Shown here piece after piece: positions 13,574 to 44,000 of a DNA stretch of 64,000 bases. The first letter of the stretch is position 1, and every line of letters begins with the position of its first letter. The stretch spans positions 8,223 through 72,222 of the forward strand of contig DAINBB010000002.1 in NCBI GenBank assembly GCA_036733165.1. The letters are read 5' to 3'. Both the position numbers and the translations under genes were made by a program. A model generated the notes under the pieces. The model was not told the origin of the DNA and searched no databases. It was given only the letters and a program-made list of their open reading frames with translations. This stretch comes from Halobacteria archaeon. GTDB taxonomy: Archaea; Methanobacteriota_B; Thermococci; Methanofastidiosales; NM3.

Positions 13574-13623
13574 TGGCATGGGGTCCAGAAAACTTTTTAT
13601 TTATTGCTCATCACTTTTGTATA

Positions 13624-16869: not shown

Positions 16870-16904
16870 AAACTATTATTAATGTGAACGAAAGAAGTGT
16901 ATGG

Positions 16905-18287
16905 ATGGTCGTCCTCAATCCGTTCGATGAAAAATACAAACGCTATCTGAATATAGATCTGAACAAGATCGACCCGAAGATGATAAGGCTGGCAATAGCC
17001 AGGTCAAATGAGGCAAACAATGAAAAATACGTCGATCTTGATGAAAAGGAGGATATCATCTCTCTCTTTCTCCTGTTGCAGAGCCTGTCGAGGACGCCCC
17101 ATGCCCCGGAGGTCCAAGGCGCGCTTGCGACATTGGAAAAATTACTGATACTGAGGACATCGAGGAACCTTGATGAGGACGGGATAGCGGAGATGTCCGG
17201 ACTCCTGGAGATACACGACCTGCCCGAACTCAAAGACCCCAAGAATCGCATGAAGAGATTCATCGAACTTGAAGAACTTGGACTGCTCGTCTCCAAGGAG
17301 GACCTCTTCAGGCTCAAGGGAGCCAAGGGGGGCGAGATAGAGTATACACTGGCCTGGGACGAGGCATATGGCGTAGTGGATATCACGAAACAGTACATCA
17401 TGGGAAAATACATGTTCATCACCAGGGCGGAACTTGTGGAGTTCTATTCCAAGTTCGTCAGGAAGATCTGCTACGATTATATGCAGAGGATCTCATCCAG
17501 GATACAAGAACATCCGCATCAAGTATATGATAAGATCACAAACATGGTCAAGTCGGTCCTGCGGGTCTCAAAACGGGTGGAAAAGGTCTCGGGTACCCTT
17601 ACGGAGGACGCCTTTCCCCCATGCATAAAGCTTTCCTTGATGGGTGTTTCCTCCGGACAGAGAAACTACTCGATCACGATACTCCTGACATCATTCCTCT
17701 CGTATGCCCGTCTGATGCCCTCAACGAAGATATTCGACAGGGATACGTCGTTCGACCTGAATCAAGAGGATATCGGTGTCCTTCTTGACGAGGTGGTCCC
17801 CGCCATATTCGAGGCCGGTGACAGCTGCGAGCCGCCATTCTTCAAGGAACAGCCTTTGGAACGGATGAACATATTCTACCATCTGGGGTTCGGGATGACC
17901 GAAAAGCCAAACCCCCAGGATTTCGGAAGGTCCAAGTGGTATCTGCCGCCATCATGCGCCAAGGTCGCAGAGAACGCCCCTTACCTCTGCCAGCCCGACG
18001 AGTTCTGCAAGAAGGTCACATGGGGCATCAAGGACCGGAAGACCGTTGATGAGCTCTTGAACAAGGCAAGGGAGGGGGGAAGAATGGCAGAGGGCGAGAT
18101 GGTCCTGGAGACGCTCTCCAAGGGCGCAAGGCCCTTCGACTCCCTGCAGGAGGAGACCGGGATAGACAAAAAAGAGCTTACAGGCCTTCTCACCACGCTG
18201 TCAAAGAACCAGCTGATAGGCAGAAGGAAGATCACGAATCCCCTGATATACTACATAAGAAAAAAATGGATGCTCAGTCAGAGATGA
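16905..18287 (+). CDS. priL: DNA primase large subunit PriL, with a C-terminal winged-helix-like extension
   Basis: Conserved FPPCIKLSLMGVSSGQRNYSITILLTSFL motif (the FPPCM box of PriL/p58). Start set at MVVLNPF to avoid overlapping the upstream gene. Confidence 0.6.
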   Translation: MVVLNPFDEKYKRYLNIDLNKIDPKMIRLAIARSNEANNEKYVDLDEKEDIISLFLLLQSLSRTPHAPEVQGALATLEKLLILRTSRNLDEDGIAEMSGLLEIHDLPELKDPKNRMKRFIELEELGLLVSKEDLFRLKGAKGGEIEYTLAWDEAYGVVDITKQYIMGKYMFITRAELVEFYSKFVRKICYDYMQRISSRIQEHPHQVYDKITNMVKSVLRVSKRVEKVSGTLTEDAFPPCIKLSLMGVSSGQRNYSITILLTSFLSYARLMPSTKIFDRDTSFDLNQEDIGVLLDEVVPAIFEAGDSCEPPFFKEQPLERMNIFYHLGFGMTEKPNPQDFGRSKWYLPPSCAKVAENAPYLCQPDEFCKKVTWGIKDRKTVDELLNKAREGGRMAEGEMVLETLSKGARPFDSLQEETGIDKKELTGLLTTLSKNQLIGRRKITNPLIYYIRKKWMLSQR

Positions 18288-27049: not shown

Positions 27050-28116
27050 ACCAGTTCTTCATGACTGGCATCCGTTTTAAATCCCGTAGGTTTGAAATGT
27101 GTCCTTGAAGCCTCAAATCCATTATCTATGATCTTTTCCAATATCGCGTTCATTGCCGGCACATGTATTTTCAAATGTGAAAACAGGTTATGCGAATCCC
27201 AGAAGAATGGAACATCCACTTCCTCCATGAGAAGTGAGATAAAGGAACGGACCCTCGTCTCATCGTGCAACGCCGCCGTTTCCAAAGAGCCCAACATGCC
27301 GCATAGGGCCTCTTTGTCATTTATCCTGCCCCCCCATACGGGATGGGCAGCCCTTAGCTTCCCCCCACAGCCGCATTCGCATTGTATCCTACTGCTGAAA
27401 AATCTGTTCAAACATTTGTCACAATAATAAATAAACCCCAGATTGGCTATTGAAGTGTCTGCCCTTTGTTTTCCTTTCTCTAGGTCTATGTGCGTCCTCA
27501 TATAATGGTCTTTGAAAAAAGAGACCCTTGGAACGATGCCATAGTCCCACGATGCGGCCTGCCTCGCAATGTATCCTATAAGTATCCTGAGCCCAATTTC
27601 ATGGCAAAAACCGGTCATGAGGGGGTGGGCGGAATATTTTCTCAGGCAAGCCTTTTTTGAGGATCCACAAAGGGCTGCCGTGTCGGTGGCGGTCACAAGA
27701 AGCGTTCCTGTCTTCCCAAACATACCGAATGCGGGATGAACATATCTAACCGGCGCCCCAAAGGGATCTATATCTATTATGTCATATTTACCTTTGATCA
27801 AGTTGAAATCCATGTTGAGAGATTTGATGTCGACCTTGTTGAGTGAGGAATTCCTCTTGATCAGTTCATATGCCTTAGGATTGATATCGTTGGCTGTGAC
27901 ATTTGTAAAACCGCTCAGGGCGTATCTTATAGGACGTATTCCAGTTCCCGCCATGCCACAGAGTATCGAAGAATCAAATGATTTTTGCATTATATATAGT
28001 AAAGATATGTCCCTATTGAAACTCATTAAAGGGTTATAAAAAACTTCATTTCTAGAGGTCACTTTTTCATAGTCTGGAACAAAGAAATTTACATTAGACT
28101 CTGAAACATCTGCCAC
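27028..28116 (-). CDS. trm1: tRNA (guanine26-N2)-dimethyltransferase Trm1
   Basis: FYNPLMSFNRDIS and ALSGFTNVTANDIN motifs. C-terminal Cys cluster (CDKCLNRF...CECGCGG). Confidence 0.8.
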   Translation of the reverse strand: MADVSESNVNFFVPDYEKVTSRNEVFYNPLMSFNRDISLLYIMQKSFDSSILCGMAGTGIRPIRYALSGFTNVTANDINPKAYELIKRNSSLNKVDIKSLNMDFNLIKGKYDIIDIDPFGAPVRYVHPAFGMFGKTGTLLVTATDTAALCGSSKKACLRKYSAHPLMTGFCHEIGLRILIGYIARQAASWDYGIVPRVSFFKDHYMRTHIDLEKGKQRADTSIANLGFIYYCDKCLNRFFSSRIQCECGCGGKLRAAHPVWGGRINDKEALCGMLGSLETAALHDETRVRSFISLLMEEVDVPFFWDSHNLFSHLKIHVPAMNAILEKIIDNGFEASRTHFKPTGFKTDASHEELVHIFSSK

Positions 28117-28125
28117 ATGAATCCC

Positions 28126-29793
28126 TCAAATGACATCCATCATATCGTTGAGCTTGGATTGAATCTGTTGAAGCCTTGACTTGGCAATGTCCATCAACCC
28201 CTGATCCAAATACGCCTCATCGCTGCTAAATGATCTAGCATAGAAAGCATATAACTCATCGAAACGCTCTCGGTATATGAAGTAATTATCCTTATTTGAC
28301 GGATCGAGTTCATCGAAAAACTCATCGACCCATTGAACAAAGTTGACAAGAAGGCTGTTCTTGATATTGATGGTTTTTTCTTGAAATGATACAAAAGAGT
28401 CCAATTCCTCATTTGCGGCAGGGGGGCGTTCCTCTAAGGTCTGTTGTACGCCTTCACTGCCCAGATCGATAGAAGAAGGCGCCCCTTCGTCTTCTGTGAA
28501 CTGTTCTGAGGCCCTTTTTATTGCAGAGACATTCTTCTTTGGCTTTTCTTTTGGTATGTAAGTTTTATTTCCGTTTGACCTAGCATGGACAAACAAGGCC
28601 AAGAATATCAATAATAGGGCAAAGCCACCCCCACCATATAAAAGATATTTTCTATCTATGTTAAAGGTACTATTCGACGGCGGCGTTGTGGGTACGGGTG
28701 TTTGGAGATTCAGAAATTGTTGTGCGATTGCAATATTCTGATCACATAACGACACCTTCTCAGAATCTGAGTAATCCTCATAAATATCCTTGGCATATTG
28801 GTATTTAGATATTGCAAGCTCGTAATTTTGATTGTTCAGCGCACTAGTGGCCTCGCTGTAATAATTGGCAGCCAGTATATAATCATTGCATTTGTTTATC
28901 AAGACATCGATATCAGACACCACTTCATCCTCTTCCAGGGAACTGTATCCTGTCTTAACGTATCCCAATAATGTAAGAGCGGAAGCATAGTCATTGGCAG
29001 ACATCAATAAGAGGGCGTCGTCATAATCGGATTGTAGGGAGGGGTAAAGCTCACATTTCTGAATCTGTGAGTTACAATATGAAACCTTTGCGTCATCCGA
29101 TAGAAAGTCAAAATTGGTCAAGGCAGATTGGTACTGTTCCTTGGCAAGAACGTAACTCCCCTCAGAATAATAGTCATCGGCACTGGATAAATCAGCGTTG
29201 GCCTCAATATATTTATCACATTTGATTATTCTTTGAGAGCACGTAATCGAATTGTAAACGTCTCCCAAATCATCATATATCTCCTTTGCACTTTCATAAT
29301 AATATTTAGAAGTATCATACTCTTCCAAATCAAAATAACGTTCGGCATTAAGATAAAAGGTTTCTGCAGATGCCCTTAAATTGTCATCATATACTAATGC
29401 CTCGTTTATCTTAGAGGAATAATATGCGAAAGTTTTTAGACCTCGAAGAATGGCATATGGTTCATCGGTTAGATGTTCAGCTAATTCATCGTATATCACA
29501 ACAGTGGGCAATTCCTCGATATCGTAAAGATTGACCAATGTCGTCTCTCCGTTATCTAAATTCAAACTTATAATATAGACAGATGTACCATAATAATCTT
29601 CAATATCGTCCATTATATCATCGCTAGTTGAACAATCAGCGCATGTAGAGTCCCAAAAATAGACCATTATGACAAGACCATTTCCCAATGCATTTTCAAC
29701 ATTGCTTGAAGAATCAGTGGCAGTTGTATATTGAAAAGACGATAACATCAATAACATCATCAAAACAACAGTGATGAGCCAACAACTGCGCAT
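28126..29793 (-). CDS. membrane-spanning surface protein: signal peptide, thioredoxin-like CxxC domain, Tyr-rich TPR-like repeats, one TM helix, cytoplasmic tail
   Basis: MVYFWDSTCADCS thioredoxin-like motif, repeated ..YY..A...Y.. helices, a TM at GGGGFALLLIFLALFV, and a ~170 aa C-terminal domain. Confidence 0.45.
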   Translation of the reverse strand: MRSCWLITVVLMMLLMLSSFQYTTATDSSSNVENALGNGLVIMVYFWDSTCADCSTSDDIMDDIEDYYGTSVYIISLNLDNGETTLVNLYDIEELPTVVIYDELAEHLTDEPYAILRGLKTFAYYSSKINEALVYDDNLRASAETFYLNAERYFDLEEYDTSKYYYESAKEIYDDLGDVYNSITCSQRIIKCDKYIEANADLSSADDYYSEGSYVLAKEQYQSALTNFDFLSDDAKVSYCNSQIQKCELYPSLQSDYDDALLLMSANDYASALTLLGYVKTGYSSLEEDEVVSDIDVLINKCNDYILAANYYSEATSALNNQNYELAISKYQYAKDIYEDYSDSEKVSLCDQNIAIAQQFLNLQTPVPTTPPSNSTFNIDRKYLLYGGGGFALLLIFLALFVHARSNGNKTYIPKEKPKKNVSAIKRASEQFTEDEGAPSSIDLGSEGVQQTLEERPPAANEELDSFVSFQEKTINIKNSLLVNFVQWVDEFFDELDPSNKDNYFIYRERFDELYAFYARSFSSDEAYLDQGLMDIAKSRLQQIQSKLNDMMDVI

Positions 29794-29835
29794 AATATAG
29801 ATATATATAAAAATTATAAAAAGGTTTTTACTTCT

Positions 29836-30504
29836 ATGAAAGAGGAAAAAGAGAAGAGAATGGTGGGGGTCTACGCATCCAAATTTGTCAAAGACGGACA
29901 GGTCATCGGACTTGGCACTGGAAGCACCGTTGCATACTTTGCAGAGGCGTTGGGTGAAAGGATTCTCAATGGAGAAAGTTTTCTTGCTGTTCCAACCTCA
30001 TATCAATCAATAGATCTATGTAAAAAATATGGAATTACCTTAACAACGCTGGATGAACACCGCCCAGAATGTGCATTTGATGGTGCCGATGAAGTGGATA
30101 AGAGCAATAATCTTATCAAGGGGCGTGGCGGGGCCATGACTCAAGAAAAGATAGTAGACTATTATTCAAATGAATTCTTTGTTCTTGTGGATAAATCAAA
30201 ACTAGTTAAGATACTAGGTTCTAACTTTCCTCTACCAATTGAAGTGATCCCCAAGGCCATAAAACCGGTTATAGATAAATTATCCGAAATGGGGAGTCCC
30301 ATGGTAAGGCCTGCAATAAATAAGGACGGTCCAGTGATTACCGATAATGGTAATTTTATCGTTGACCTAAAAACAATAATAAAAAATCCAAAAGAAATGG
30401 AAATTAATATAAATAATATACCAGGGGTCGTGGAGAATGGCATTTTTACACGAAAATGTAAAATAATAGTGCCAAATGACAACGACATCATTGATGTTAT
30501 TTAA
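29836..30504 (+). CDS. rpiA: ribose-5-phosphate isomerase A
   Basis: GLGTGSTVAYF and DGADEVD motifs. Confidence 0.8.
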   Translation: MKEEKEKRMVGVYASKFVKDGQVIGLGTGSTVAYFAEALGERILNGESFLAVPTSYQSIDLCKKYGITLTTLDEHRPECAFDGADEVDKSNNLIKGRGGAMTQEKIVDYYSNEFFVLVDKSKLVKILGSNFPLPIEVIPKAIKPVIDKLSEMGSPMVRPAINKDGPVITDNGNFIVDLKTIIKNPKEMEININNIPGVVENGIFTRKCKIIVPNDNDIIDVI

Positions 30505-30518
30505 CATCAATAACATCA
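30492..30518. promoter_or_regulatory. perfect 10 bp inverted repeat TGATGTTATT-N7-AATAACATCA overlapping the rpiA stop codon
   Basis: Read directly from the sequence. Lies upstream of the coiled-coil wHTH gene and shares the GATGTTAT core with repeats at 31250-31287. Confidence 0.5.
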
Positions 30519-30540
30519 CCGTTTATAATTAATTAGAAAA

Positions 30541-31242
30541 TTGTCTTTTTTTTTAGATTTAATCAATAATTATAAATTATTCGATAACATCATCGAAAAC
30601 TATTTATTATATCATATATTACTATACCTCATGGGATTACTATCTGCTCTTGGATTGAAAAGAAATGATGACAAGCTAGAACAAGAAATCACAAAATTGA
30701 AGGAAACTGTAGAAATACAAAGTCAACAGAATATTGAAGGAATAAGAAATGATATAAGATCTCTGTTTTCAGAAGTTCAGAATATAAAGACTGGACTCAA
30801 GGACTGTTCATCAGGGATTGAGAAAAGTGAATTTAAAATATCCAAACTAGCCGAAAAGATGGTAGAAATCGAAAATAATATGCTAAAAGTTGTATACAGA
30901 GACGAAATCGACTTAATAAAGAAAGAATTCGATTATATACAGGAAGATATTAAAAATATAAAAGAATCACAAGCGAAAATCACTGATAAAGTGATTAATT
31001 TTGCCTTAGATAAAGGCAAAAGTACCAATGTTGAACCCTCAGAAAGTGTGATTTTAGAACCATTAACCGATTTTGAAAAAGAAGTCCTTTCAGAATACAA
31101 AAATGATATCACTTCGGACGCCATAGTTAAGGATACTGGCATGTCCAAAGGGCACATTTCAAGAACTCTGAAAGGCCTCTATAAGAAAGGATATCTTTCC
31201 AGAAAGAGAAAAGGTAAAGAATATATATATTACAAAAAATGA
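30541..31242 (+). CDS. coiled-coil protein with a C-terminal winged-HTH (MarR/TrmB-like)
   Basis: Long heptad-rich central region, and a C-terminal ..DTGMSKGHISRTLKGLYKKGYLSRKRKGKEYIY wHTH. The start codon is uncertain. Confidence 0.45.
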   Translation: MSFFLDLINNYKLFDNIIENYLLYHILLYLMGLLSALGLKRNDDKLEQEITKLKETVEIQSQQNIEGIRNDIRSLFSEVQNIKTGLKDCSSGIEKSEFKISKLAEKMVEIENNMLKVVYRDEIDLIKKEFDYIQEDIKNIKESQAKITDKVINFALDKGKSTNVEPSESVILEPLTDFEKEVLSEYKNDITSDAIVKDTGMSKGHISRTLKGLYKKGYLSRKRKGKEYIYYKK

Positions 31243-31249
31243 TAAGAAT

Positions 31250-31287
31250 GACATCGATGATGTTATTGTGATATCATTGATGTTATA
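31250..31287. repeat. two direct copies of an 18 nt motif (GACATCGATGATGTTATT / GATATCATTGATGTTATA) that also occurs at 30484-30501
   Basis: Direct reading: 30484 GACATCATTGATGTTATT; 31250 GACATCGATGATGTTATT; 31270 GATATCATTGATGTTATA. Confidence 0.6.
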
Positions 31288-31696
31288 ATACATCATCAAG
31301 AATTGTTATCATTTTTTTTCTCATATTTTGAAATGTACGTTCACTTTCACTTTCTTTGGCATCCTTCAATAATTCGAGCAATTCGATGTAAATATCGATG
31401 GATTCAACCGGGATCAGGTTCGCGTATATACCTAAAATGAAGGTGGCCATTGACTTGTCGATGTTGGCTTTTGCTAAGCGAATGTTATCCGATATCGCTT
31501 GTTTTGTAACTAAACGGTGCTCAGCAATGTCTTGTACTGTCACAGAATCTCCAAATTCCTTGTTCCAAATATAAGAAACGTAATCTTTTAGCTGTATTTT
31601 ACTAAAAAAACTGATTTTCATTAATTTATTAGCAAAATAATCAGAATCTAACCATTTATCTATATAATTATATGAGTATTTCATGAAATCATCCAA
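31283..31696 (-). CDS. hypothetical protein with a putative HTH
   Basis: 137 aa. VTVQDIAEHRLVTKQAISDNIRLAKANI looks like an HTH. Confidence 0.35.
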   Translation of the reverse strand: MDDFMKYSYNYIDKWLDSDYFANKLMKISFFSKIQLKDYVSYIWNKEFGDSVTVQDIAEHRLVTKQAISDNIRLAKANIDKSMATFILGIYANLIPVESIDIYIELLELLKDAKESESERTFQNMRKKMITILDDVL

Positions 31697-31788
31697 GTCA
31701 AGGCATTTTACTTGACAAGTATATTTCAGAAGACTATTTAAATATTATCATAATCTTATAGTTATATAATTTTCAATATACTAGGTAT

Positions 31789-32274
31789 GTGAATTCTATG
31801 AAGAAGGTTTATCTTAATTGGACTAAGGTGGACGAAGCCATCTGGACTCTAAAGGATGAGATATGGAAAGAATTCGTTCCAGACATCATTGTTGGTGTGG
31901 CCAGGGGCGGACTAATACCTGCAGTGAGACTATCACATATAACAAACAACACTTTGATGAGAGTTGTAGATGTCAAGTTTTATACAGATATAGAAAAAAG
32001 AACTGAAAAACCTACCATTACTGTCCCTTTAACTGAAAATATCACTGATCTCAACGTTTTAATCGCTGATGACGTAGCAGATACAGGAAAAACGTTAGTA
32101 GAGGTCAAAAAACACATTAAATCATTAAATCCTAAGAAAATTAAGGTGGCCGTTATAGCAAAAAAGCCTCAAAGCATAATTGATCCAGACTATTATGTAT
32201 TTGAAACGGACAAGTGGATTATATTCCCCTGGGAAAAGATGCCCGTTGAAAGGGGAAGTGGAGAAATGGTATGA
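31789..32274 (+). CDS. type I phosphoribosyltransferase (purine PRTase-like)
   Basis: PRPP-binding motif VLIADDVADTGKTL. Confidence 0.55.
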   Translation: MNSMKKVYLNWTKVDEAIWTLKDEIWKEFVPDIIVGVARGGLIPAVRLSHITNNTLMRVVDVKFYTDIEKRTEKPTITVPLTENITDLNVLIADDVADTGKTLVEVKKHIKSLNPKKIKVAVIAKKPQSIIDPDYYVFETDKWIIFPWEKMPVERGSGEMV

Positions 32275-32822
32275 CAAGGTTATTTGTAGCGATAAATCTA
32301 GACGATGAAATAAAAAAGACCATTGTGTCCATAGATGATCTATTTTCAAAAAGTAGCATAAATGCAAAATTCACATCCCCTGAAAATATGCACATGACTT
32401 TGAAGTTTATTGGTGAATGGCCCTTCAATGATGTTAATGATGTCATCGATATCCTCAATGATGTCAAGACATCATTCAAGCCTTTCAATGTCGATTTCGA
32501 AGGAATTGGGGGATTCCCAAATGATCATGCTCCTCGTATCATATGGGTTGGTGGAAAATCAAGGACATTGGTCGATATGGCAGGTAAAATTGATAAAAAT
32601 CTATCAACGTTGGGTATAAAAAAGGAAAATAGGCCCTTCTCCTCCCATATAACCTTGGCAAGGGTAAAAAATATCTTGAATAGAGATGATATCATTAACA
32701 TCATTCATGCCAATAAAGATGTCGCCATAGGCAGCCAACATGTCACGGAGTTCTGTCTCAAGAAAAGTGAATTGACCCCAAATGGGCCAATATATTCTGA
32801 TGTGGAGGTATTTACCCTATGA
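32271..32822 (+). CDS. thpR: RNA 2',3'-cyclic phosphodiesterase (LigT/ThpR, 2H family)
   Basis: Two H-x-T/S-x motifs (HMTLKF, HITLAR). Start overlaps the upstream gene by 4 nt. Confidence 0.75.
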   Translation: MTRLFVAINLDDEIKKTIVSIDDLFSKSSINAKFTSPENMHMTLKFIGEWPFNDVNDVIDILNDVKTSFKPFNVDFEGIGGFPNDHAPRIIWVGGKSRTLVDMAGKIDKNLSTLGIKKENRPFSSHITLARVKNILNRDDIINIIHANKDVAIGSQHVTEFCLKKSELTPNGPIYSDVEVFTL

Positions 32823-34060
32823 ACATGGAAGAGGTCTTAAGATTAATAGTCCCTGATCAGGAAGAAAAGGAAGAGGCCCTGAAAAAATATGGAGAAGTAT
32901 CTGACTACATAGAAAAGAGATTCGGAAGAGAAACCATCCTAGTGGGGTCGGTTGCCAAAGATACCTTCCTAAAGGGAGACAAAGACCTTGACATATTCGT
33001 TTACTTCAATATTGATGAAAAACGCGAGGAGATGGAGAAAGAAGCCCTGCTGATTGGCAAATCGGTGTTTGAACATTTTGGGAATGAATACCAAGTTGAA
33101 TATGCCGAACACCCTTATGTATCGGGGATCGTCGATGGATATGATATAGAGATCGTGCCCTGCTACAAGATCAAGAATGCTCACAACATAATCTCAGCGG
33201 TAGATAGAACGCCATTCCATTTGTCATTTGTCAAAGACCATCTGAGAGACTGCCAGAAAGATGATGTCAGGCTGCTCAAAAAATTTTTAAAGGCACAAAA
33301 AATGTACGGCGCCGACTCAAAGGTCAATGGATTCTCGGGATATCTATGCGAACTGTTGATAATACATTATGGTTCCTTCGAAGGATTGGCAAGGTCGGCC
33401 ATTAATTGGGAAGTAGGGGAAACGATAGAGTTTTTAAGGCCAGTCAATGTGTTTAAAGACCCCCTGATCATTATTGATCCCGTTGATCCAAATCGCAATG
33501 TGGCTTCCCCGGTATCCTTGGACACGTATTCAAGATTCGTGCTGGAATGTAAGAGATACTTTGACACGAAGGACGAGGGCATGTTCGCAGGGCCCGAGAT
33601 GGGTTATGAACCCATTGAAGGCGGCAGGTTGATCGTCATCCAGGTCGATATGGACGTGCTTGAAGATATTTTTTATTCCCAATGTAGAAAGTTTCTTGCC
33701 ACAATCAAAAGGTCCTTCAAGAGCGAGGGATTCACTTTGTATAGGTCAGGCATATTCTCCAAAGGTCTCGTGCTGGACATCGAGACTGGGGACCTGCCTA
33801 CCATAAAGAAACACATGGGGCCAAGGATTGGCAATGTGGAGAACATGCAAAGATTCCTTTCGAAGAATAGATGCGTCTTTGCAGAGGGGGGACATCTCTT
33901 CTCCTTCAGAGAGAGAAGATACAATGATGTCATTGATGTCATCAATGATATTATAAAAGATAAGGTAGGGATGGGAAATCATCTTAAAAAGGCAAATTTA
34001 AAAATATTATCAAAAGAAAGTGCATATTTATCTATAAAAGATGAAATTATTTATTATTAA
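32819..34060 (+). CDS. cca: CCA-adding tRNA nucleotidyltransferase (archaeal class I)
   Basis: GSVAKDTFLKGDKDLDIFV polymerase-beta-like motif. 413 aa. Start overlaps the upstream stop. Confidence 0.8.
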   Translation: MNMEEVLRLIVPDQEEKEEALKKYGEVSDYIEKRFGRETILVGSVAKDTFLKGDKDLDIFVYFNIDEKREEMEKEALLIGKSVFEHFGNEYQVEYAEHPYVSGIVDGYDIEIVPCYKIKNAHNIISAVDRTPFHLSFVKDHLRDCQKDDVRLLKKFLKAQKMYGADSKVNGFSGYLCELLIIHYGSFEGLARSAINWEVGETIEFLRPVNVFKDPLIIIDPVDPNRNVASPVSLDTYSRFVLECKRYFDTKDEGMFAGPEMGYEPIEGGRLIVIQVDMDVLEDIFYSQCRKFLATIKRSFKSEGFTLYRSGIFSKGLVLDIETGDLPTIKKHMGPRIGNVENMQRFLSKNRCVFAEGGHLFSFRERRYNDVIDVINDIIKDKVGMGNHLKKANLKILSKESAYLSIKDEIIYY

Positions 34061-35172
34061 AGAGTAATTACCTCATCGGATGCACAATCTAATTTAGTAT
34101 ATATATTATCTCCATTATAATAGATGTATATGGTGTCAATGATGTCAGGAAGGTCAAAGTACAATGTAAGGCCATCTATGTTTTCCTCGCTTGTTATCGT
34201 CACTAAAAGCTCGTTGAGGGATTCCTTATAATCAACTTCAATCCCAGAAAGCATGTTGTACCATTCCAGATATTCATGGATTGTTGGCATCCATATGTTA
34301 TTCTCGTTTGCATGCTCCAAGAACCGCTCCATCATCTCCAACGCCTCGTATCTTCCAGTTATCTCATTGACTGCCATCAATCGCGGCAGATGCGTGAAGA
34401 CCAAGAAGGGGGTTCCTTTCTTCAGGCAGGCATCGAATCTCGTTGTCAGTTCATGGTATACTGTTGAAGAGTTCTCAGGTGTGACATCCCAAAAATAATC
34501 CTCTGGAAAACAGGGGATCTCGATGATGTCAATATCATCACCAAAAAAAGGATGGAAAGTGTCCTTTGGATTGTATGGAAAAACATTGAATATGGAAGCT
34601 GAGGAACAATATTGGAATCCCGCCTCTTCCAAAGCCTTGTAAGTATTGGTATTTTTCCAGAAGGAGGGCGGCCTGAACCCGTATATCTCCCCAAATAGGG
34701 ACTCAAGATCCTCTTTCCCACTGCTTATTATGGAAAGTTGCTCATCGTACGACTTTCCCTTCAACTCCATGGTTGGATAGTGTATATATCCATGAAGGGC
34801 CATCTCGTCTCCCTGAGACAGGGCCTCGTTCAGGGCTTCGATCAATTCCTGGTTCTGAGACAGCGTTCTTTCCTCTCCGCCGTATCTGGGTATTATGAAA
34901 TATGTCACGTCGGCCTGATATTTTTCCGTAAGTTCCATAATCATCTGGATCTCTTCAGCAGAGGTCATATAGGAAACATCGTCAATCGTCAATATGGCGA
35001 CGCCTTCGTTTCCGGAGGGGAATCTACCTATAGAACAATATTCGTTGTCTAGGTCAAATGGGTCCCAATAAGATGAGAAAGGAGAAAAGTATCTTTGGAC
35101 ATTGATCGTGTAAAGATAAGAACTAACTAAAATTATTAGGAACAGAATAAACAGGTATCTTCTCCTTATCAT
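34057..35172 (-). CDS. putative polysaccharide deacetylase-like protein (DUF2334-like?) with an N-terminal TM anchor
   Basis: N-terminal hydrophobic anchor. The DDVSYMTS...YFIIP region resembles a deacetylase-like fold. This assignment is weak. Confidence 0.35.
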   Translation of the reverse strand: MIRRRYLFILFLIILVSSYLYTINVQRYFSPFSSYWDPFDLDNEYCSIGRFPSGNEGVAILTIDDVSYMTSAEEIQMIMELTEKYQADVTYFIIPRYGGEERTLSQNQELIEALNEALSQGDEMALHGYIHYPTMELKGKSYDEQLSIISSGKEDLESLFGEIYGFRPPSFWKNTNTYKALEEAGFQYCSSASIFNVFPYNPKDTFHPFFGDDIDIIEIPCFPEDYFWDVTPENSSTVYHELTTRFDACLKKGTPFLVFTHLPRLMAVNEITGRYEALEMMERFLEHANENNIWMPTIHEYLEWYNMLSGIEVDYKESLNELLVTITSEENIDGLTLYFDLPDIIDTIYIYYNGDNIYTKLDCASDEVITL

Positions 35173-35177
35173 CACTT

Positions 35178-35411
35178 TCACTTTGATAGATTGCTGAGGG
35201 CAACAGTATATAGCGCTATTAGCAAGTCCTGATTCTCCTCTGCATCTCCGACCAGCGCCGATGCCGCGATCTGTTTGAGGGCGATGCACTTTATCATTGC
35301 CATCCTAACGGATTCGGTCTCGTTGTCCTTGAGCTTTATACCATTAAGGTCGAATATATGCTTGATGTTCTGCCTGTCGGTCTCTGCAATTTCATCTGGT
35401 GTCATTTCCAT
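35178..35411 (-). CDS. small hypothetical protein
   Basis: 77 aa ORF in the otherwise empty gap upstream of the deacetylase-like gene. Confidence 0.3.
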   Translation of the reverse strand: MEMTPDEIAETDRQNIKHIFDLNGIKLKDNETESVRMAMIKCIALKQIAASALVGDAEENQDLLIALYTVALSNLSK

Positions 35412-35549
35412 TTATAAGTCACCTTTTGCCTTAGGTATCCTCTGGGTTATATTAAATTTTTCCATAAGATTTTTAAATTCTGCAAAACGGGTTACTTCAG
35501 CCGTCGGGATACTATTAATAAATTATTTATTGTGTAGTTCTCATACTGT

Positions 35550-36236
35550 GTGGAGAAAATGCTTTCTTTAGGAACGTCATTCTATGAGCTCATAGGGGCA
35601 ATAGCCTTGATCCTGATAGTTTTTACAATATTATTGATAGTGTTCGGATTGATACAGCTCATGATCTCCATGAGGATAAACAAGTTCATATTTCCTAATC
35701 TTCAGTCTTTTCTGGTGGATACATTCTATTCCGTGTTTGAGAGCGCCTTCGGCATTTTCAATGTTCCCTCCGACGTGTTGGAAGAGTGGAGCATAACTCT
35801 CAAGAATCATGCGAACCGGGAGCACTTCATCAAGGTCCCGGTTTCTAAAAGGATAGTGGTGTTGCCCCAATGTCTTAGATCCATAAACTGTCCAGCGAAT
35901 CTGTCTGCAAAGGATGGCATTCGATGTCTTGATTGCGGGAGATGTATGATAAAAGAGTTCAGGAAAAGGGCAGAGGAGCTTGGCTACAAGGTCTTCGTGG
36001 TCCCTGGAGGGACCTTTGTAAAACGGATCATCAAGAAAGAAAGGCCCGAAGCCGTGATAGGTGTCGGTTGCTTTCCCGACCTCGTGGAGGGGATGAAGAT
36101 ATCAAAACGGGCCGGTATAGCATCCCAAGGAGTGCTGTTAGAGACCAGCGGGTGCATCGAGACCATCATAGAATGGAGCAAATTGTATGAAAAGTTATAT
36201 CTTGGATTAGATATAAATAAGGAGGTCATCGCTTGA
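35550..36236 (+). CDS. DUF116-family membrane protein (conserved Cys pairs)
   Basis: N-terminal TM helices, then LRSINCPANL...CLDCGRCMIKEF and a conserved C-terminal block typical of DUF116. Confidence 0.5.
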   Translation: MEKMLSLGTSFYELIGAIALILIVFTILLIVFGLIQLMISMRINKFIFPNLQSFLVDTFYSVFESAFGIFNVPSDVLEEWSITLKNHANREHFIKVPVSKRIVVLPQCLRSINCPANLSAKDGIRCLDCGRCMIKEFRKRAEELGYKVFVVPGGTFVKRIIKKERPEAVIGVGCFPDLVEGMKISKRAGIASQGVLLETSGCIETIIEWSKLYEKLYLGLDINKEVIA

Positions 36237-36754: not shown

Positions 36755-39008
36755 GATAAAGAGAATGGCATCCGTCTTTCTAACAAAGACGGCCCTCATG
36801 GCTGGCCTTATCATTATGGTCAGCATGCCCATTCTTAGCTTGCTAAACATAGTGGAAACGGCCGTCTACTCGATAAACGTCCTAGTGCCGGCATATGTGG
36901 GGTTCGTCATTGTATTGGTCGCCGTCACCAAAATCTTCAGAAAGAGACGTTCTTTTTTCCAGATGTCTTTCCTTGGGGCGTCCGTGCTCGCTGTTCTCGC
37001 CGCCGTTGATATGGTCTACGATCCAGCCTTAACTGAACTTAGTGCGGTCAGGGGCACCATATTCTTCCTGTTAATAGTTGCCTTCGTCTCGTTCCTCATC
37101 CTTATAGCGTTTAAATCGTTGTCCAACAAAAGACGGGTATACCAGTCCTTCTCATTGGTATTGTTTAATCTCGGCGCATTTGGGATAGTTGTCAAGCACC
37201 TGGTTGCTCCCGGGCTCAACTGCTATGCTTGCCCTTGGGCAAGCGCTGGATGCCCAATAGGCCTATTACAGAACTGGATCATTATGGGAGAAGTACCGTA
37301 TTATCTGATCGGGAGTTCGATGGCCGTGTTCACTCTCTTTGGGAGGGCGTTCTGCGGTTGGGCCTGCCCCTTTGGTTTCCTACACGATATCATGGACACG
37401 ATTACCTCAATAAGATTCGGTAGAAAAGATATCAATAAGTTGCTGAGGGTAAAGAGCAACGACCCTTGGAAAGACAGGGCGGGTGTCCTGAGCTACCTCA
37501 CAAGGTCCATCGTGCTGATTGTGCTGATTGTGGCCGCCTGGAATTATTCGGCAACGTGGTTTTGCAAGCTATGCCCCGCAGGATTTATAGAGGCCGCCCT
37601 GCCATACAGGCTGAGCCATACCGTGACACCAGATCCGCTTTATGTCTTCAGGGTCGTGATATTCTTCTCCCTCATGATGATAACGCTGATAATATCGAGA
37701 TTTTGGTGTAGATATTTCTGCCCATTGGGGCACCTGGCAGGCCACTTCAACAGGGTTTCCATGTTAAGGTTAGAGCTGGATGAGGAAAAATGCAACAATT
37801 GCGGGCTTTGCGGAAAGGCATGCCCCATGGACTTGAAGCCAGATTTCTTCCTGAAAAAGGAAAGGGAACCCGACAGTGACGTGTTCACAAAGGTCAAGAA
37901 CATGATCAAGAAAGAACGCTCGAACTGCATCCTTTGCGGCGAATGCGTAGAGAAGTGCCATCATGATGCCCTGAAACTCACTTTCCTGCCCTCTGCTGCC
38001 ACCGGAAGCATAAAGATGGCACAGAACATAAGGGACAAGTTCCTAGGTGAGATAGAGAGCTCTGGCAACAAGCTCATCAAGAACGTTCAGAGCGAACTCG
38101 GGCCGAAACCGGAAAGGGCATCGCCCCTGTCGGACGATGATGGTGAAGCTCAGAGGTGGGAGAAGGGCATGGGGCGAACCCCCTACCCAAGAAGGACTGT
38201 TCAGAAACCTGGGAGCGGTGCCTATAACTGGCCTTTCCCCGTGTCCATCTATGTTATATATAAGTCCGTGACCGAGATCCCTAAGATGGTCGATCATCTG
38301 AAATCGAGTCCAGGGTATTCTGTCAGGTTCATGGGGATCTTTGAAGATGACAGATATTACAAATTCTATAATTCTGTGTACAATGGGTTCATCGAAACGC
38401 CGATCATATACGTCAACGGGCAGCTATATCTCGGTAATCTAGAAGACAGCAACGAGCTGTTGCAATTCGTTGAAGATGTCCAGGACACCTACAAGGATAT
38501 ATACATCTATTGTAATTCCGATAATTGCATGGAAGGACCAAATAGCAATCTCCTGAGAAACGCTATCGGGGACATGTTGCTAACACGGGGCGAACAATAT
38601 CCATTGACCTTGTTCAGGACCGAGTCGCCGGGGGCTCTGATATCCGCATGCCTCCCCGGGACGCTATATGCCTTATATGGGAAGAGTTCCCATTCAAGCA
38701 AAAAACTCTCAGATTATATCAGATACAAGGTCAGCGAACATGACGAGAAAGAGCTTGATTCTTTCGCGAACATACCGATGACCAGAATAGAGCTCTACAT
38801 GAAAAAGGACGACGATCTCTCCAACGAACTTTTGAACATCGTGGCGAAGGCTTCCTACCATTCAGGCGGGAAATTGAGATTCAGGATCACAGAATGGGAC
38901 AATAGCATTCCATCAATGGTCATCAACGGCAACGAACTTCCAAAACGATACTATCCTACATCATACAATACCCTATTGATGATGATACGAAAATATGGTA
39001 GAATGTGA
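36741..39008 (+). CDS. NapH/MauN-like polytopic ferredoxin membrane protein fused to about three C-terminal thioredoxin/glutaredoxin-like domains
   Basis: TM region carrying CYACPWASAGCP, FCGWACPFG, FCKLCPAGF and WCRYFCPLG motifs. A 2x[4Fe-4S] domain follows (CNNCGLCGKACP...CILCGECVEKC). Then Trx-like segments (IYIYCNSDNC..., PIIYVNGQLYLG, MVINGNELP). Confidence 0.55.
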   Translation: MERRRIKRMASVFLTKTALMAGLIIMVSMPILSLLNIVETAVYSINVLVPAYVGFVIVLVAVTKIFRKRRSFFQMSFLGASVLAVLAAVDMVYDPALTELSAVRGTIFFLLIVAFVSFLILIAFKSLSNKRRVYQSFSLVLFNLGAFGIVVKHLVAPGLNCYACPWASAGCPIGLLQNWIIMGEVPYYLIGSSMAVFTLFGRAFCGWACPFGFLHDIMDTITSIRFGRKDINKLLRVKSNDPWKDRAGVLSYLTRSIVLIVLIVAAWNYSATWFCKLCPAGFIEAALPYRLSHTVTPDPLYVFRVVIFFSLMMITLIISRFWCRYFCPLGHLAGHFNRVSMLRLELDEEKCNNCGLCGKACPMDLKPDFFLKKEREPDSDVFTKVKNMIKKERSNCILCGECVEKCHHDALKLTFLPSAATGSIKMAQNIRDKFLGEIESSGNKLIKNVQSELGPKPERASPLSDDDGEAQRWEKGMGRTPYPRRTVQKPGSGAYNWPFPVSIYVIYKSVTEIPKMVDHLKSSPGYSVRFMGIFEDDRYYKFYNSVYNGFIETPIIYVNGQLYLGNLEDSNELLQFVEDVQDTYKDIYIYCNSDNCMEGPNSNLLRNAIGDMLLTRGEQYPLTLFRTESPGALISACLPGTLYALYGKSSHSSKKLSDYIRYKVSEHDEKELDSFANIPMTRIELYMKKDDDLSNELLNIVAKASYHSGGKLRFRITEWDNSIPSMVINGNELPKRYYPTSYNTLLMMIRKYGRM

Positions 39009-40408
39009 CCGATATTGGACAATATGTCAAAAATGACAATGTTTATAAATTTAGTAAGATATTGTTCAATGGCGATAAAACCATGAAAAGGACCAAAGTC
39101 ATAATCCTTGGGGCCGCGGGTAGGGACTTCCATAACTTCAATGTTTTCTTTAGGGATAATCCATCCTATGAGGTGGTGGCCTTCACGGCGGCACAGATCC
39201 CGGACATAGAGAAAAGATATTATCCAAAGGAGCTCTCGGGCGAGTTATACCCTAATGGAATACCCATACATCCGGAAGATGATCTTGAGGAGTTGGTTAG
39301 CAGATACGGGGCCGAAGAGGTGATAATGGCATATTCCGATCTTCCTCATGAGAAGGTGATGCAGCTTGGCTCCAGGGCCCTGGCCGCGGGTGCAGACTAC
39401 AGGCTGATGGGACCGGGGTCCACGATGTTGAGGTCCAAGAAACCCATAATCTCGGTATGTGCCGCCAGAACCGGCAGCGGGAAGAGCCAAGTGTCCAGGA
39501 AACTGGCGTCCATCCTCAAGAGGATGGGACTCAAGGTGGTTGTCATCAGGCATCCGATGCCATATGGTGTTCTGAGAAAGCAGGCGTGCCAGAGATTCGA
39601 GACATATGCCGATCTCGAAAAAAACGAATGCACGATAGAGGAGAGGGAGGAATATGAACCCCATATAGACATGGGCACGATCGTCTATGCGGGAGTTGAC
39701 TATGGACTAATTTTGGCAGAGGCCGAGAAAGAGGCAGACGTGATAATATGGGACGGAGGGAACAACGATTTTTCATTTTATCGCTCTGACCTGTACATTG
39801 TTGTGGTCGACCCCCTGCGCTCTGGGAACGAACTGACATACTATCCCGGGGAGACGAATGTCAGGATGGCAGACCTATGCATCGTGAACAAGGTGGACAC
39901 CGCCTCCGGCGATGAGGTGCTGAGGGTGATCAACAACATCTACAACCTCAACCCCCGGGCAAGGATAATCGAGGCCGCATCCCCGATATCCGTGGACGAC
40001 CCGTCCCTGATCAAGGGAAAGAGGGTGTTGGTGGTGGAGGACGGACCTACGATCACGCACGGCGGCATGAAGTACGGAGCAGGTTACATCGTGGCGAGGA
40101 AGTACGGCGCCAAGGAGATAGTTGACCCAAGACCTTATCTGGTGGGGTCGTTGGAGCGGACGTTTAAGAAGTACCCCCATATAGAGAACGTCCTGCCTGC
40201 CATGGGATACAGCGAAGAACAGGTAAGGGACCTGCAGGAGACCATCCGCAACGTGAAATGCGACACCGTCGTCGCAGGGACCCCCATAGACTTGGATAGG
40301 ATAATGGAAATAGGGAAACCCCATGTGAGGGCGCATTACAGGCTCGATGAGATCGGCGACCTGAATCTGGAAGATGTCGTGCGGGAACTATTCAAAAACA
40401 AGGGATAG
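39005..40408 (+). CDS. P-loop protein resembling cyclic 2,3-diphosphoglycerate synthetase (tentative)
   Basis: N-terminal Rossmann-like GAAGRDFHNF, then a Walker A (ARTGSGKS). About 460 aa. GTG start overlaps the upstream stop; an alternative ATG is at 39083. Confidence 0.4.
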   Translation: MTDIGQYVKNDNVYKFSKILFNGDKTMKRTKVIILGAAGRDFHNFNVFFRDNPSYEVVAFTAAQIPDIEKRYYPKELSGELYPNGIPIHPEDDLEELVSRYGAEEVIMAYSDLPHEKVMQLGSRALAAGADYRLMGPGSTMLRSKKPIISVCAARTGSGKSQVSRKLASILKRMGLKVVVIRHPMPYGVLRKQACQRFETYADLEKNECTIEEREEYEPHIDMGTIVYAGVDYGLILAEAEKEADVIIWDGGNNDFSFYRSDLYIVVVDPLRSGNELTYYPGETNVRMADLCIVNKVDTASGDEVLRVINNIYNLNPRARIIEAASPISVDDPSLIKGKRVLVVEDGPTITHGGMKYGAGYIVARKYGAKEIVDPRPYLVGSLERTFKKYPHIENVLPAMGYSEEQVRDLQETIRNVKCDTVVAGTPIDLDRIMEIGKPHVRAHYRLDEIGDLNLEDVVRELFKNKG

Positions 40409-40947: not shown

Positions 40948-41017
40948 ATCCGACAAATAGGAGGGTGAACTTCCCTTTTTGGAGTATAATTATAAACTTT
41001 CAATTTATATAGGAATT

Positions 41018-44000
41018 ATGTCCAGTGACGACGATGGCCCCGACCCGCTTACCATACTCTACGTAGATGACGAAGAGGAATTCCGGGAACTCACAAAACG
41101 ATATCTCGAGCGCAAGGGCGATGTCATCGTGCACACGGCCGCATCTGCCGCCGAGGCGTTGAACATGCTTCGAAAACGTTCATATGACGCGATCGTGTCC
41201 GACTATCAGATGCCAAGGATCGACGGTGTGGAATTTCTTAAAAAGCTCCGCTCCTCCGGAGACAACAGCCCGTTCATCCTATTTACCGGCAAGGGCAGGG
41301 AAGATGTGGCGGTAGAGGCCTTTGAGAGTGGTGCCGACCACTATCTGCAAAAGGGGGGAGACCCGCGACCGCAATATGCGGAACTCCTGCACAAGGTGCA
41401 CCAGACCGTGAGATTGAACAAGGCGAAGCATGCGCTTTGGGAAAGCGAGAAGCGCTATCGAAGATTGTTTCAAGAAACCCCCCTGGGCATAATCAACTAT
41501 GACACCCATGGCACCATACTCGATTGCAACAAGAGATTTGTGGAAATAGTTGGTTCTTCAAAAAAGGAACTGTTGGGCCTCAACATGATAAACGACCTTG
41601 TTAACAAGGACGTGATAGAAGAGATCAAGAAATCCCTGAAGTCTGGAAAGGGGTATTACGAAGGTTTGTATACCTCCATGACGGCAGGCAAGACCACGTC
41701 ATTAAGGGCGATTTTCAAAGGCATAAAAGATACCAACGGAAGGATATATGCAGGATTGGCGCTTATAGAGGATATCACAGAAAGGTCAAAGATAGAGAAG
41801 GACCTGCGGGAGAGCGAAAGGAAGTACCGTACCATAATCGAAAAGACCCCAGTGGGCCTTCTTAAATTCAAAATGTCCCCGGAAGGCATTTTTTATCCCG
41901 CCTTCATCAGTAACAATATCGCCTCCTTCACCGGCGTTTCCACAAGTGAGGCATATGAGGATATCAACAATCTGATAGAGCATATACACCCTGATCACCG
42001 TGATATGATCTACAACAAGATGAAACATGCAGAGCATAACATAGGATATGACGAGTTCACCATCGCATGCAATGCAAAGGATGGCCTGAGGTGGCTCGAT
42101 GTGCGTGTTACCCCATCAAGGGAGGAAGACGGGACCCTTGTCTGGGACGTGGTCTTCATGGACATCACGGAACGGAAGAACGCCGAGGAAAAGTTATCAT
42201 CACTGGCCACAGAATACGAGACCGTGTTCACAGGCACCCAAGATTCGATGTTCCTGGTGGAGGTTGTCAGTGATGGGTTCAGGTATATAAGGACGAATAA
42301 GTCGCACCAGGAAAGCACGGGGTTTACTCTCGATGACATTATGGGAAAGACCCCACAGGAGCTCTTGGGCAAGCGCATGGGCGATGTCATCGCGTCCAAC
42401 TATCGGCGCAGCATAGACACCAAGGGTCCAGTGACCTATAAGGAAACGCTTGATCTGCCAGCCGGGAAGAAGATATGGAGAACAACGTTGACGCCTGTGT
42501 TCGAGAATGGAAGAGCCAGATATATAGTGGGCTCAAGCCAGGATGTCACAGAACACGAGAATGCGCTGGAGGCCCTTGCACAGACGGCCGATAGGCAACA
42601 GGTGCTGCTTGACAACATCGACATGCAGGTCTGGTACATGACCGATGAACATACATATGGTATGGTGAACGAGGCGCATGCGGCCTTCTGCTGTATGCGT
42701 AAAGAGGACCTGGCATATAAGGATATACGCGAGGTCTGTCCGAAGGACATATCAGGGTTCTTTCAACAATCCATTGAAAAGGTGTTCTCAACCGGCATAA
42801 GGGAGAGGGGGGAGGTCTGGGTGACAAACAAATCTGGAGAGAAACGTCTCCTGCTGATGACCAAATCGCCCAAGGCCAACGCCAACAGTTCGGTGAAATA
42901 TGTGATCTGTACTGCGGAAGACATAACTGAGTACAGAGAGGCGGAAGAGAACGCCAAGGCCAGCGAGATGAAGTACAGGTCGCTTGTCGAGAATCTCAAC
43001 GATGTCGTTTACATCCTCAATGAAAAAGCGGAAGTGGCCTATATCTCGCCCAACATAGAGGCGATAGGCGGATACCCGGTGTCAGAGATCCTGAACAAGA
43101 GCTTCATCAATTTCGTCCATCCCGAAGACAGGATCAATAGGACAGAACAATTTCTGAAGGTCCTCTCTGGTGTCAATGAACCTACCGAATACAGGTTTTT
43201 GAAAAAGGATGGCAGTATCGTTTGGGTGAGGACTACCGCCCGACCGATCGTCAAGGGGGGCCGTGTGGTCGGGGTACAGGGAGTGATAATAGATATCACA
43301 GAAAGAAAGTATGCTGAACAGGCACTGAGGGAAAACGAAATCAAGTATCGTACCCTTTTCGAGGATTCCAGAGATGCAATATGGTTCACATCGTCCGAGA
43401 ACCGTGTCATGGAAGCAAATTCTGCGGCCTTCAAGCTTCTTGGTTACCCCAGGAAGGAGTTCATCGGGATAGATGCCAAACGCCTGTATGCCGAACCTTC
43501 TGACCGGGAGAAGTTCCTCGAGCGCATCCTCGAGAACGGTTTCGTGAAGGACTATGAGGTAAGGCTCCGACACAAGGACGGGAGCGTTGTCCTCTGCGCA
43601 TTCACGTCGCACGTTTGGAGAAACGAACAAGGCGACATACTTGGTTACCGTGGCATCGTCAGGAACATCACGGAGAGCAGGCGCGCAGAAGAGGCGCTGA
43701 GGGAGAGCGAGGAGAAATATCGCCTTATCACTGAGAACACTGCCGACAACATAAGCTTGCTGGACTTTTCACTAAGTGTCGTGTATACCAGTCCCTCGAT
43801 AGAGAAGATACGCGGCTATTCAGTTGATGAGTCTGTGGGACAGACGATAGACGACATAATGACACCAAGATCCAGAGAGGATGTCCTGGCCCTTTTCTCT
43901 GAACAGATGATGCTAGAGTCGTCCGGCACTGCCGATCCAAATCGTTCCTTCACCATCGAGGTGGAGGAATATCACAAGAACGGCTCTATCGTGGATGTGG

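Follow-up and report, generated by a model that had tools for sequence, protein, structure and literature searches.

Organisation of the locus and its gene order

The 64,000-nucleotide stretch of DNA analysed here (the window; contig DAINBB010000002.1, assembly GCA_036733165.1) comes from an archaeon placed by GTDB in the Methanofastidiosales and carries, between rpiA and a convergently oriented gene for a 133-aa protein, a gene encoding a 203-aa protein with a C-terminal winged helix-turn-helix (wHTH) domain. Arrays of a 9-bp repeat lie at both ends of this wHTH gene and inside neighbouring protein genes, with a further site against its predicted promoter, and our subject is this repeat and its probable role as a set of operators for the 203-aa protein. 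The window's RpiA and 133-aa proteins are 100% identical to proteins named Ca. Methanofastidiosa archaeon. The surrounding genes follow a fixed order (EndoV, FtsJ, Trm1, TPR/thioredoxin, rpiA, wHTH, 133-aa, phosphoribosyltransferase (PRT), LigT, CCA, DUF2334, 75–77-aa, DUF116), which is the same in every locus extending far enough, down to 51% protein identity. The 133-aa protein is limited to Methanofastidiosa, always adjoins the wHTH gene in this clade and, with 71–92% identity among relatives, is better conserved than the wHTH protein.

The neighbourhood of rpiA is a different one in Ca. Methanofastidiosum sp., with no member of the wHTH family, no motif and a flat GC profile, which indicates that the module belongs to one subclade and has been inherited vertically within it. 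Because rpiA of Ca. Methanofastidiosum sp. stands in this different context, the module may be an ancient acquisition by the ancestor of the clade. At one Ca. Methanofastidiosum sp. locus (L018, 8714–9154), rpiA is directly followed by a small wHTH gene encoding a 146-aa protein of the TrmB family with a C-terminal helix; this protein is unrelated in sequence to the wHTH protein of the window (BLASTP E = 3.6), and no motif arrays accompany it.

A 203-aa protein with a long helix and a C-terminal winged helix-turn-helix

The AlphaFold2 model of the 203-aa protein (predicted local distance difference test score 78.8) consists of a single helix over residues 13–127, a disordered linker and a winged HTH at residues 147–202, at the extreme C-terminus. 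The preliminary description, made from the sequence of the window, had proposed a long coiled coil followed by a C-terminal wHTH; the helix and the wHTH are both present in the model, and the helix of ~115 residues probably forms a coiled coil. Foldseek searches against the PDB matched the wHTH only, over 54–69 columns and with E-values of ~5e-3 and above, the matches being ArsR, MarR, Lrs14/AbfR2, BlaI/MecI and AspA. Pfam scores fell below the respective cut-offs (MarR, 22.5 bits against 24.6; MarR_2, 21.3 against 27; DUF7343, 24.3 against 27.6), and the NCBIfam matches, to wHTH and to coiled-coil models, were likewise all sub-threshold. The most conserved parts of the protein are the wHTH, in which the recognition-helix region SKGHISRTLK is nearly invariant, and the N-terminal MGLLSxLG, of which M1, G2, L4 and G8 are nearly invariant.

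Members of the family occur in two GTDB species representatives and six metagenome loci, and form 16 clusters at 90% identity, with all 16 homologues 201–206 aa long. A profile search of 1.84 billion cluster representatives returned only two strong representatives, the remainder being weak matches to short wHTH proteins, and there is therefore no wider family to lean on. Our literature search found nothing on the wHTH family, on DUF7343 or on origins and segregation in Methanofastidiosa. One homologue (P0006) was deposited as 'MarR family transcriptional regulator [Candidatus Dojkabacteria bacterium]', and fellow members of its cluster as 'Zn-ribbon protein'; since the synteny of the family is archaeal, this label probably reflects a mis-binned contig or a mis-annotation.

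The gene had previously been taken to start at TTG 30541 (30541–31242). ATG 30631, which gives the 203-aa product, is the more likely start, because it agrees with the narrow length range of the homologues, most of which begin MG[LI]L, and because the predicted promoter occupies 30541–30630; the annotated start has been corrected to this position.

A phased 9-bp repeat clustered around the wHTH gene

Three copies of an 18-nt motif had been reported to flank the wHTH gene, and all three are present, at 30484–30501 (GACATCATTGATGTTATT), 31250–31267 and 31270–31287, the latter two with two mismatches each to the first. The perfect 10-bp palindrome TGATGTTATT-N7-AATAACATCA described at 30492–30518 was also confirmed. 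The first 18-mer was said to include the last codons and the stop of rpiA; it covers the last six codons but not the stop, as the TAA (30502–30504) falls just past it, in the spacer of the 10-bp palindrome. Each 18-mer is in fact a dimer of a 9-bp repeat unit, the core of which is the quasi-palindrome ATGAYRTCAT. Five further sites were overlooked in that count, namely a tandem pair in the TPR/thioredoxin gene, a palindrome in the promoter region of the wHTH gene (O1), two arrays in LigT and one in CCA (Table 1), while weaker copies lie at 28130–28151, 34136–34151 and 34520–34535. Overall, each locus holds 20–30 unit copies spread over ~5 kb.

This clustering far exceeds expectation. Six matches to the 18-mer with up to 3 mismatches were observed against 0.05 expected, and GATGTTAT occurs 8 times in the window, with 7 of the 8 occurrences inside 29742–31286. 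A degenerate two-unit pattern has 13 matches in the 64 kb, 12 of them at 29.7–34 kb. Shuffles restricted to the local AT-rich sequence give 2.5 expected occurrences of GAYRTYAT within 29.7–34.1 kb, where 23 were observed; for pairs of units 9 bp apart, the shuffles give 0.00 and 8 were observed. The spacing of adjacent units inside the domain is exactly 9 bp in 56 of 95 pairs. In each of seven lineages, the stretch between −1 and +4 kb relative to the wHTH start holds the core TGAYRTCA at 2–3 per kb, compared with ~0.1–0.3 per kb elsewhere and 0–0.12 per kb in loci that lack the wHTH gene.

The motif is kept at three places in all orthologous loci (about ten distinct ones): the rpiA stop, the promoter of the wHTH gene and the tail-to-tail spacer between the wHTH and 133-aa genes. 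Nine orthologous loci include upstream sequence, and all nine have an array of 3–5 units at the rpiA stop; ten include downstream sequence, and all ten have an array of 3–6 units in the tail-to-tail spacer. Lineages vary in how many units they have and in how these are oriented, while the unit sequence is constant, and the intergenic DNA surrounding the three places is not conserved. As identity at 4-fold degenerate sites between lineages is 0.21–0.39, that is, saturated, the conserved non-coding DNA is under selection. The preliminary description regarded the tail-to-tail pair as unusual for an operator; with an array there in all ten loci, this placement is a real feature. It had also raised the case of relatives with the gene and without flanking repeats; arrays are found in every locus.

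At the rpiA stop, the motif also writes the C-terminal residues of the protein, which read NDNDIIDVI in the window and NDIIDVR, NDVINIR, NDIIDVK or DDVIDVK in relatives, compared with GNIVSLKS in the outgroup. The C-terminus of RpiA is thus shaped by the DNA motif.

Runs of T follow both arrays, a T9 run (30545–30553) after the one at rpiA and a T8 run (31306–31313) after the downstream one, the latter within the convergent 133-aa gene, at its 3' end. These runs are probably archaeal terminators, and an A6/T6 run at 31231–31236 may play the same role for the opposite strand.

A candidate operator at the promoter of the wHTH gene

The overlooked copy O1 lies directly against the TFB recognition element (BRE) and TATA box predicted for the wHTH gene. 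Archaeal promoters are recognised by a BRE, a TATA box and the spacing of these elements to the transcription start, and by these rules CGAAA would be the BRE and TATWTA the TATA box, with the start of transcription placed from the spacing. Alignment of nine loci revealed a block, TTTCRATRAYRTCATCGAAAnnTATWTA, which is conserved, largely invariant and at a fixed distance from the ATG; T46, A47, T48, T50, A51 and the CGAAA are invariant, and the spacer outside the block is not conserved. The family consensus of O1 is TTCRATGAY.RTCATCGAA, the right end of which is the BRE-like CGAAA, and O1 of the window has one mismatch to the 16-mer consensus. The TATA box is 3 nt from O1 and begins ~30 nt before the A of ATG 30631, which implies a leaderless mRNA and would account for the fixed spacing.

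The 133-aa gene has a distinct palindrome of its own, GTCAAG-N8-CTTGAC, which is found once in the window and once in each of the 15 fetched loci that carry the gene pair. It is absent from loci L020 and L021, where a distant 128-aa homologue stands alone; with neither palindrome upstream of that homologue at L020, this locus does not help to assign binders. The palindrome is a candidate operator of the 133-aa gene or, alternatively, a candidate 5'-untranslated-region hairpin. That this gene has its own promoter palindrome fits one operator type per regulator. The helix-turn-helix assignment of the 133-aa protein is weak and sub-threshold; an identity with UPF0122/YlxM was considered and rejected, as this best PDB fold match (E = 0.5) is not significant.

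Selection on coding copies through codon choice

Several copies of the motif lie inside protein genes. When read in frame, the motif encodes D-[VI]-[IM], and a C-ending V or I codon in this context creates GAY-RTC-AT. In the genes of the AT-rich region around the wHTH gene (described below), taken over seven lineages, 44 of 67 V/I codons in D-[VI]-[IM] are C-ending (0.66), compared with a background of 0.21 (Fisher p = 1e-14), and the effect is significant in each lineage alone (p from 0.046 to 7e-5). Genes more than 6–7 kb away gave 0.47 against a background of 0.36, and outgroup loci 0.17 against 0.16, neither difference being significant. None of four control contexts (E-x-[IM], N-x-[IM], D-x-other and other-x-[IM]) had a significant C-ending effect. 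This codon-context test indicates that the coding copies are not a by-product of protein sequence: the copies inside LigT and CCA are selected as DNA, via codon choice, in seven lineages.

The array in CCA starts where the alignment to solved CCA enzymes ends. The tandem pair in the TPR/thioredoxin gene is read in a different frame (L-M-M-L-L-M-L), and a site at this position was seen only in the closest relative examined (locus L002, one unit).

An AT-rich valley centred on the wHTH gene

The motif cluster lies at the bottom of a valley, 8–10 kb wide, in the G+C fraction of third codon positions (GC3), the course of which is given in Table 1. All seven lineages have such a valley, lowest at the wHTH gene, with flank GC ranging from 0.40 to 0.58. 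At locus L010, for example, GC3 drops from 0.70–0.76 to 0.32–0.35 (valley at 8000–13000), and the valley of locus L011 spans 7000–14000. The valley touches both the synonymous sites and the amino-acid composition of housekeeping genes, and its presence in synonymous sites of conserved housekeeping genes points to a positional effect rather than to a foreign island.

Table 1. Features of the wHTH locus, with positions counted from the first nucleotide of the window and promoter and operator assignments predicted
Feature	Position	Strand	Description
AT-rich valley	27600..35600	none	Centred on the wHTH gene; GC3 drops from 0.60–0.74 to 0.28 and then recovers
GC3, approach side			Genes >6 kb away 0.60–0.74; Trm1 0.47; TPR/thioredoxin 0.40; rpiA 0.34
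GC3, centre			wHTH 0.28; 133-aa 0.33; PRT 0.36; LigT 0.39
GC3, far side			CCA 0.48; DUF2334 0.48; DUF116 0.55; genes beyond 0.57–0.66
Tandem pair	29741..29763	none	Two units in the 5' end of the TPR/thioredoxin gene, ~75–95 nt upstream of the rpiA start
Upstream array	30484..30518	none	Four 9-bp units (two forward, two reverse) over the last six rpiA codons and the stop; holds the first 18-mer and the 10-bp palindrome
O1, promoter-proximal candidate operator	30580..30597	none	18-bp imperfect palindrome TTCGATAACATCATCGAA
Predicted core promoter of the wHTH gene	30594..30609	+	BRE CGAAAA at 30594–30599; TATA box TATTTATTA at 30601–30609
wHTH gene	30631..31242	+	203 aa: N-terminal MGLLSxLG, helix 13–127, linker, C-terminal winged HTH 147–202
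Downstream array	31248..31295	none	Some five 9-bp units that fill the tail-to-tail spacer, beginning 6 nt past the stop of the wHTH gene and running into the final codons and the stop of the 133-aa gene; holds the second and third 18-mers
Convergent partner gene	31283..31684	−	133-aa all-helical protein, HTH weakly like YlxM/UPF0122
Second conserved palindrome	31697..31716	none	GTCAAG-N8-CTTGAC, GTCAAGGCATTTTACTTGAC, between a TATA-like box and the 133-aa start codon
LigT array 1	32425..32475	none	Peptide NDVNDVIDILNDV; position conserved in orthologues
LigT array 2	32685..32707	none	Peptide DDIINII; ~110–135 nt upstream of the CCA start
CCA array	33921..33957	none	In the CCA-adding enzyme gene; peptide NDVIDVINDII

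Other features of the window

A small second cluster of the motif lies in a GC-rich region at 45769–45866 (cores at 45773, 45782, 45833 and 45855), where it straddles two successive M42 peptidase genes (the 3' end of the first and the start of the second) and encodes VDVNDII...DDVDDVI; it may be a real site or a protein-level coincidence. The genes concerned belong to three tandem paralogous M42 glutamyl aminopeptidase genes (44592–47853) with overlapping stop and start codons. A 1257-aa hybrid sensor is encoded at 40979–44752, in which a receiver domain is combined with at least six PAS domains and with HisKA/HATPase domains. The only replication gene identified in the window, 12 kb away from the motif cluster, encodes the large subunit of DNA primase (16740–18287).

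Interpretation of the motif

Two readings had been offered for the original repeats, namely operator sites bound by the enclosed protein and attachment (att)-like repeats of an integrated element, and comparative evidence favours the former while arguing against the latter. The motif occurs at the same three places in every orthologous locus, one of its copies abuts the predicted BRE and TATA box of the wHTH gene, and it is found only in loci that carry this gene. On balance, we consider it reasonably probable that the motif constitutes the operators of the 203-aa protein, which would provide autoregulation where they adjoin the promoter and higher-order assembly where they form arrays. We infer the binder, the sign of regulation and the assembly: the 203-aa protein is the candidate binder because of its co-occurrence with the motif, the position of O1 at its promoter, the conservation of its wHTH and its architecture. 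A dimer bound to the 18-bp palindrome O1 would set the expression of the wHTH gene itself; the more likely sign is repression by competition with transcription factor B (TFB), since O1 covers the BRE, though activation could also be envisaged. The arrays would act as multi-copy auxiliary sites in a 9-bp register, whether intragenic (LigT, CCA and neighbours) or located at the rpiA stop or in the tail-to-tail spacer. Many copies of the protein joined by their long helices could then form a looped or filament-like complex over ~5 kb of AT-rich DNA, which would strengthen the autoregulation and probably affect the neighbouring genes of RNA maturation and nucleotide metabolism. Were this correct, an uncultured archaeal lineage would provide a cis/trans pair consisting of a 9-bp site, an 18-bp promoter operator and a predicted binder.

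Several observations weigh against the operator reading. The left arm of O1 is less conserved than the right, and conservation of the right arm could stem from the BRE alone. In the 10-bp core, just 5 bp separates the half-sites, an uncommon arrangement for a dimer of the MarR type. Presence of the motif goes with that of the 133-aa HTH protein as strictly as with that of the wHTH protein, and co-occurrence alone therefore cannot assign the binder. Our survey covered 64 kb of this genome and 10–20 kb of each relative, and clusters may exist elsewhere in the genome. Finally, a plain autoregulator needs neither arrays inside LigT and CCA nor an AT-rich valley of 8–10 kb; regulation of the wHTH gene is thus probably not the whole story, which leaves room for a role in chromosome organisation.

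Such a role is a tentative alternative to the operator reading. The ~5-kb array cluster might be a nucleation centre, whether centromere-, anchor- or origin-like or an H-NS/ParB-like spreading domain, where the wHTH protein coats or bridges AT-rich DNA and its N-terminal peptide docks to the membrane or to a partner, the autoregulation at O1 being secondary. The 20–30 units over ~5 kb, some of them kept in coding sequence by codon choice, would suit this role, as would the conserved GC3 valley, which is gene-centred in all lineages at any genome GC. A long helix, a linker and a DNA-binding domain resemble the make-up of DNA bridgers and tethers, the N-terminal M1, G2, L4 and G8 are nearly invariant, and gene orientation diverges at 29.8 kb. 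Against it, Pfam scans of the flanking and other large open reading frames (40 in all across the 64-kb window) found no ParA/ParM/TubZ/SegA-type NTPase, the sole P-loop match being weak and CobW-like (39005–40408), and no Orc1/Cdc6; the origin recognition box (ORB) core consensus had no site near the locus. The intergenic regions of the valley are 40–126 bp long and leave no room for a classical unwinding element. The cumulative GC skew is lowest near 29.5 kb, but skew tracks gene orientation throughout the window and therefore gives no independent replication signal. The restriction of the family to one Methanofastidiosa subclade would also be odd for an essential chromosome function. A conventional replication origin was considered and set aside, with no Orc1/Cdc6 among the 40 reading frames scanned and no ORB core near the locus; on this point the GC skew is uninformative. 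It is still conceivable, if doubtful, that the locus is a chromosomal landmark of this subclade, a histone-unfavourable AT-rich domain of ~5 kb coated or bridged by the wHTH protein and perhaps tethered via its N-terminal peptide. It would then be a centromere-, anchor- or origin-like element of a kind undescribed in archaea, with the GC3 valley as its evolutionary footprint. Whatever the role, the predicted binding sites held inside protein genes by codon choice, independently in seven lineages, and the local GC3 valley at one chromosomal position regardless of genome GC may both bear on local archaeal chromosome organisation.

It is unlikely that the motif is bound by another protein, either the 133-aa HTH protein or a regulator encoded elsewhere, with the wHTH protein acting on a different site such as GTCAAG-N8-CTTGAC (cross-regulation). 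The 133-aa protein is the better conserved of the two and always adjacent, and the downstream array overlaps its stop codon. However, each of the two genes has one of the palindromes at its promoter, O1 in the case of wHTH and the other in that of the 133-aa gene, self-regulation is the common arrangement, and the assignment of the 133-aa protein to the HTH proteins is itself sub-threshold.

Elements acting at the RNA level, with the arrays forming hairpins that terminate or stabilise mRNAs at the 3' ends of rpiA, wHTH and the 133-aa gene, are improbable. The position of the arrays at gene ends and their stable folds (z-scores of −0.8 to −6.0 upstream and −2.7 to −12.4 downstream) are what hairpins would give, but any array of quasi-palindromic units folds, with G-U pairs, and folding is therefore uninformative. 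Orthologues keep the unit sequence but differ in whether units are direct or inverted and in the stems predicted, which is the opposite of covariation; the same sequence occurs at O1, upstream of the predicted transcription start; and Rfam has no match at the locus.

The origin of the repeats as att-like direct repeats, left by a small element integrated at the 3' end of rpiA, is very improbable. Similar 18-mers do bracket a single gene, one of them overlapping the rpiA 3' end, and the module is absent beside rpiA in Ca. Methanofastidiosum sp.; this distant genus is the only one without the module, and comparison of the rpiA 3' region found no empty site within the clade that would correspond to a missing 0.75-kb segment. 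Synteny is fixed in all relatives, the bracketed segment (30505–31249) holds only the 203-aa wHTH gene and no integrase or recombinase, and the wHTH protein has no relatives in collections of viral contigs, plasmids or phages. Moreover, the motif has many copies beyond the flanking pair and is conserved under selection, copy number and orientation vary between lineages, and the AT-rich valley grades smoothly into housekeeping genes without stopping at the repeats. This removes a false mobile-element call. Coding coincidence, by which D-V-I and D-I-I peptides in AT-rich genes would give GAYRTYAT by chance, might be suggested by the in-frame reading of the motif and its several coding copies, but is scarcely credible and was rejected by the codon-context controls, given the conserved non-coding copies, the copy read in another frame, the excess over shuffles of local composition and the specificity of the codon effect for this domain and for the context that creates the motif.

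Comparison with known systems

The locus shares features with several known classes of DNA-binding systems. With the MarR/ArsR autoregulators, including the archaeal Lrs14/AbfR-like proteins, it shares wHTH fold and sequence signals and a palindromic candidate operator at its own promoter, O1, whose position against the predicted BRE and TATA box is conserved in nine loci. It differs in that the 203-aa protein scores below the gathering cut-offs of Pfam and the cut-offs of NCBIfam for the MarR family, and in that MarR proteins are compact (~140–150 aa) with the wHTH between dimerisation helices, whereas here the wHTH is C-terminal behind a helix of ~115 residues. The sites, in addition, are arrayed in 9-bp phase, to either side of the gene and within its neighbours. 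A long coiled coil with a C-terminal wHTH, combined with phased arrays at both gene ends and in neighbouring genes, would be unlike textbook archaeal regulators.

In site layout, the locus most resembles centromere-binding systems. TubR/tubC, ParR/parC, AspA of pNOB8 and the omega heptads are centromere-binding proteins with iterated sites by their own gene that double as an autoregulatory operator. A small DNA-binding protein (a wHTH protein, as are TubR and AspA) and contiguous repeats of mixed orientation adjoining its gene are common to both, and by this likeness higher-order assembly would be expected here. Unlike these systems, the locus has no motor NTPase nearby, is chromosomal and set among housekeeping genes, and has sites in coding sequence over ~5 kb; there is no sequence relationship.

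Among chromosome-organising proteins, H-NS-like bridgers and RacA-like tethers combine a coiled coil with a DNA-binding domain. The 203-aa protein, as modelled, has a comparable set of parts in its (probably oligomerising) helix, linker and DNA-binding domain, and shares with them an AT-rich domain and clustered specific sites, the motif cluster coinciding with the conserved AT-rich valley. Neither the domain order nor the fold is related, however, the family is confined to one archaeal subclade, and spreading, bridging or docking would be conjectural here. Palindromic sites kept in protein genes and clustered in one chromosomal region are also known from Bacillus subtilis, where a chromosomal parS site lies inside spo0J, although in the present case the motif is different, the protein does not resemble ParB and ParA is lacking. 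Taken together, these comparisons suggest, with moderate confidence, that the locus encodes a site-specific wHTH protein with predicted operators, set apart from known examples by the layout of its arrays, its coding-embedded sites and its compositional valley.

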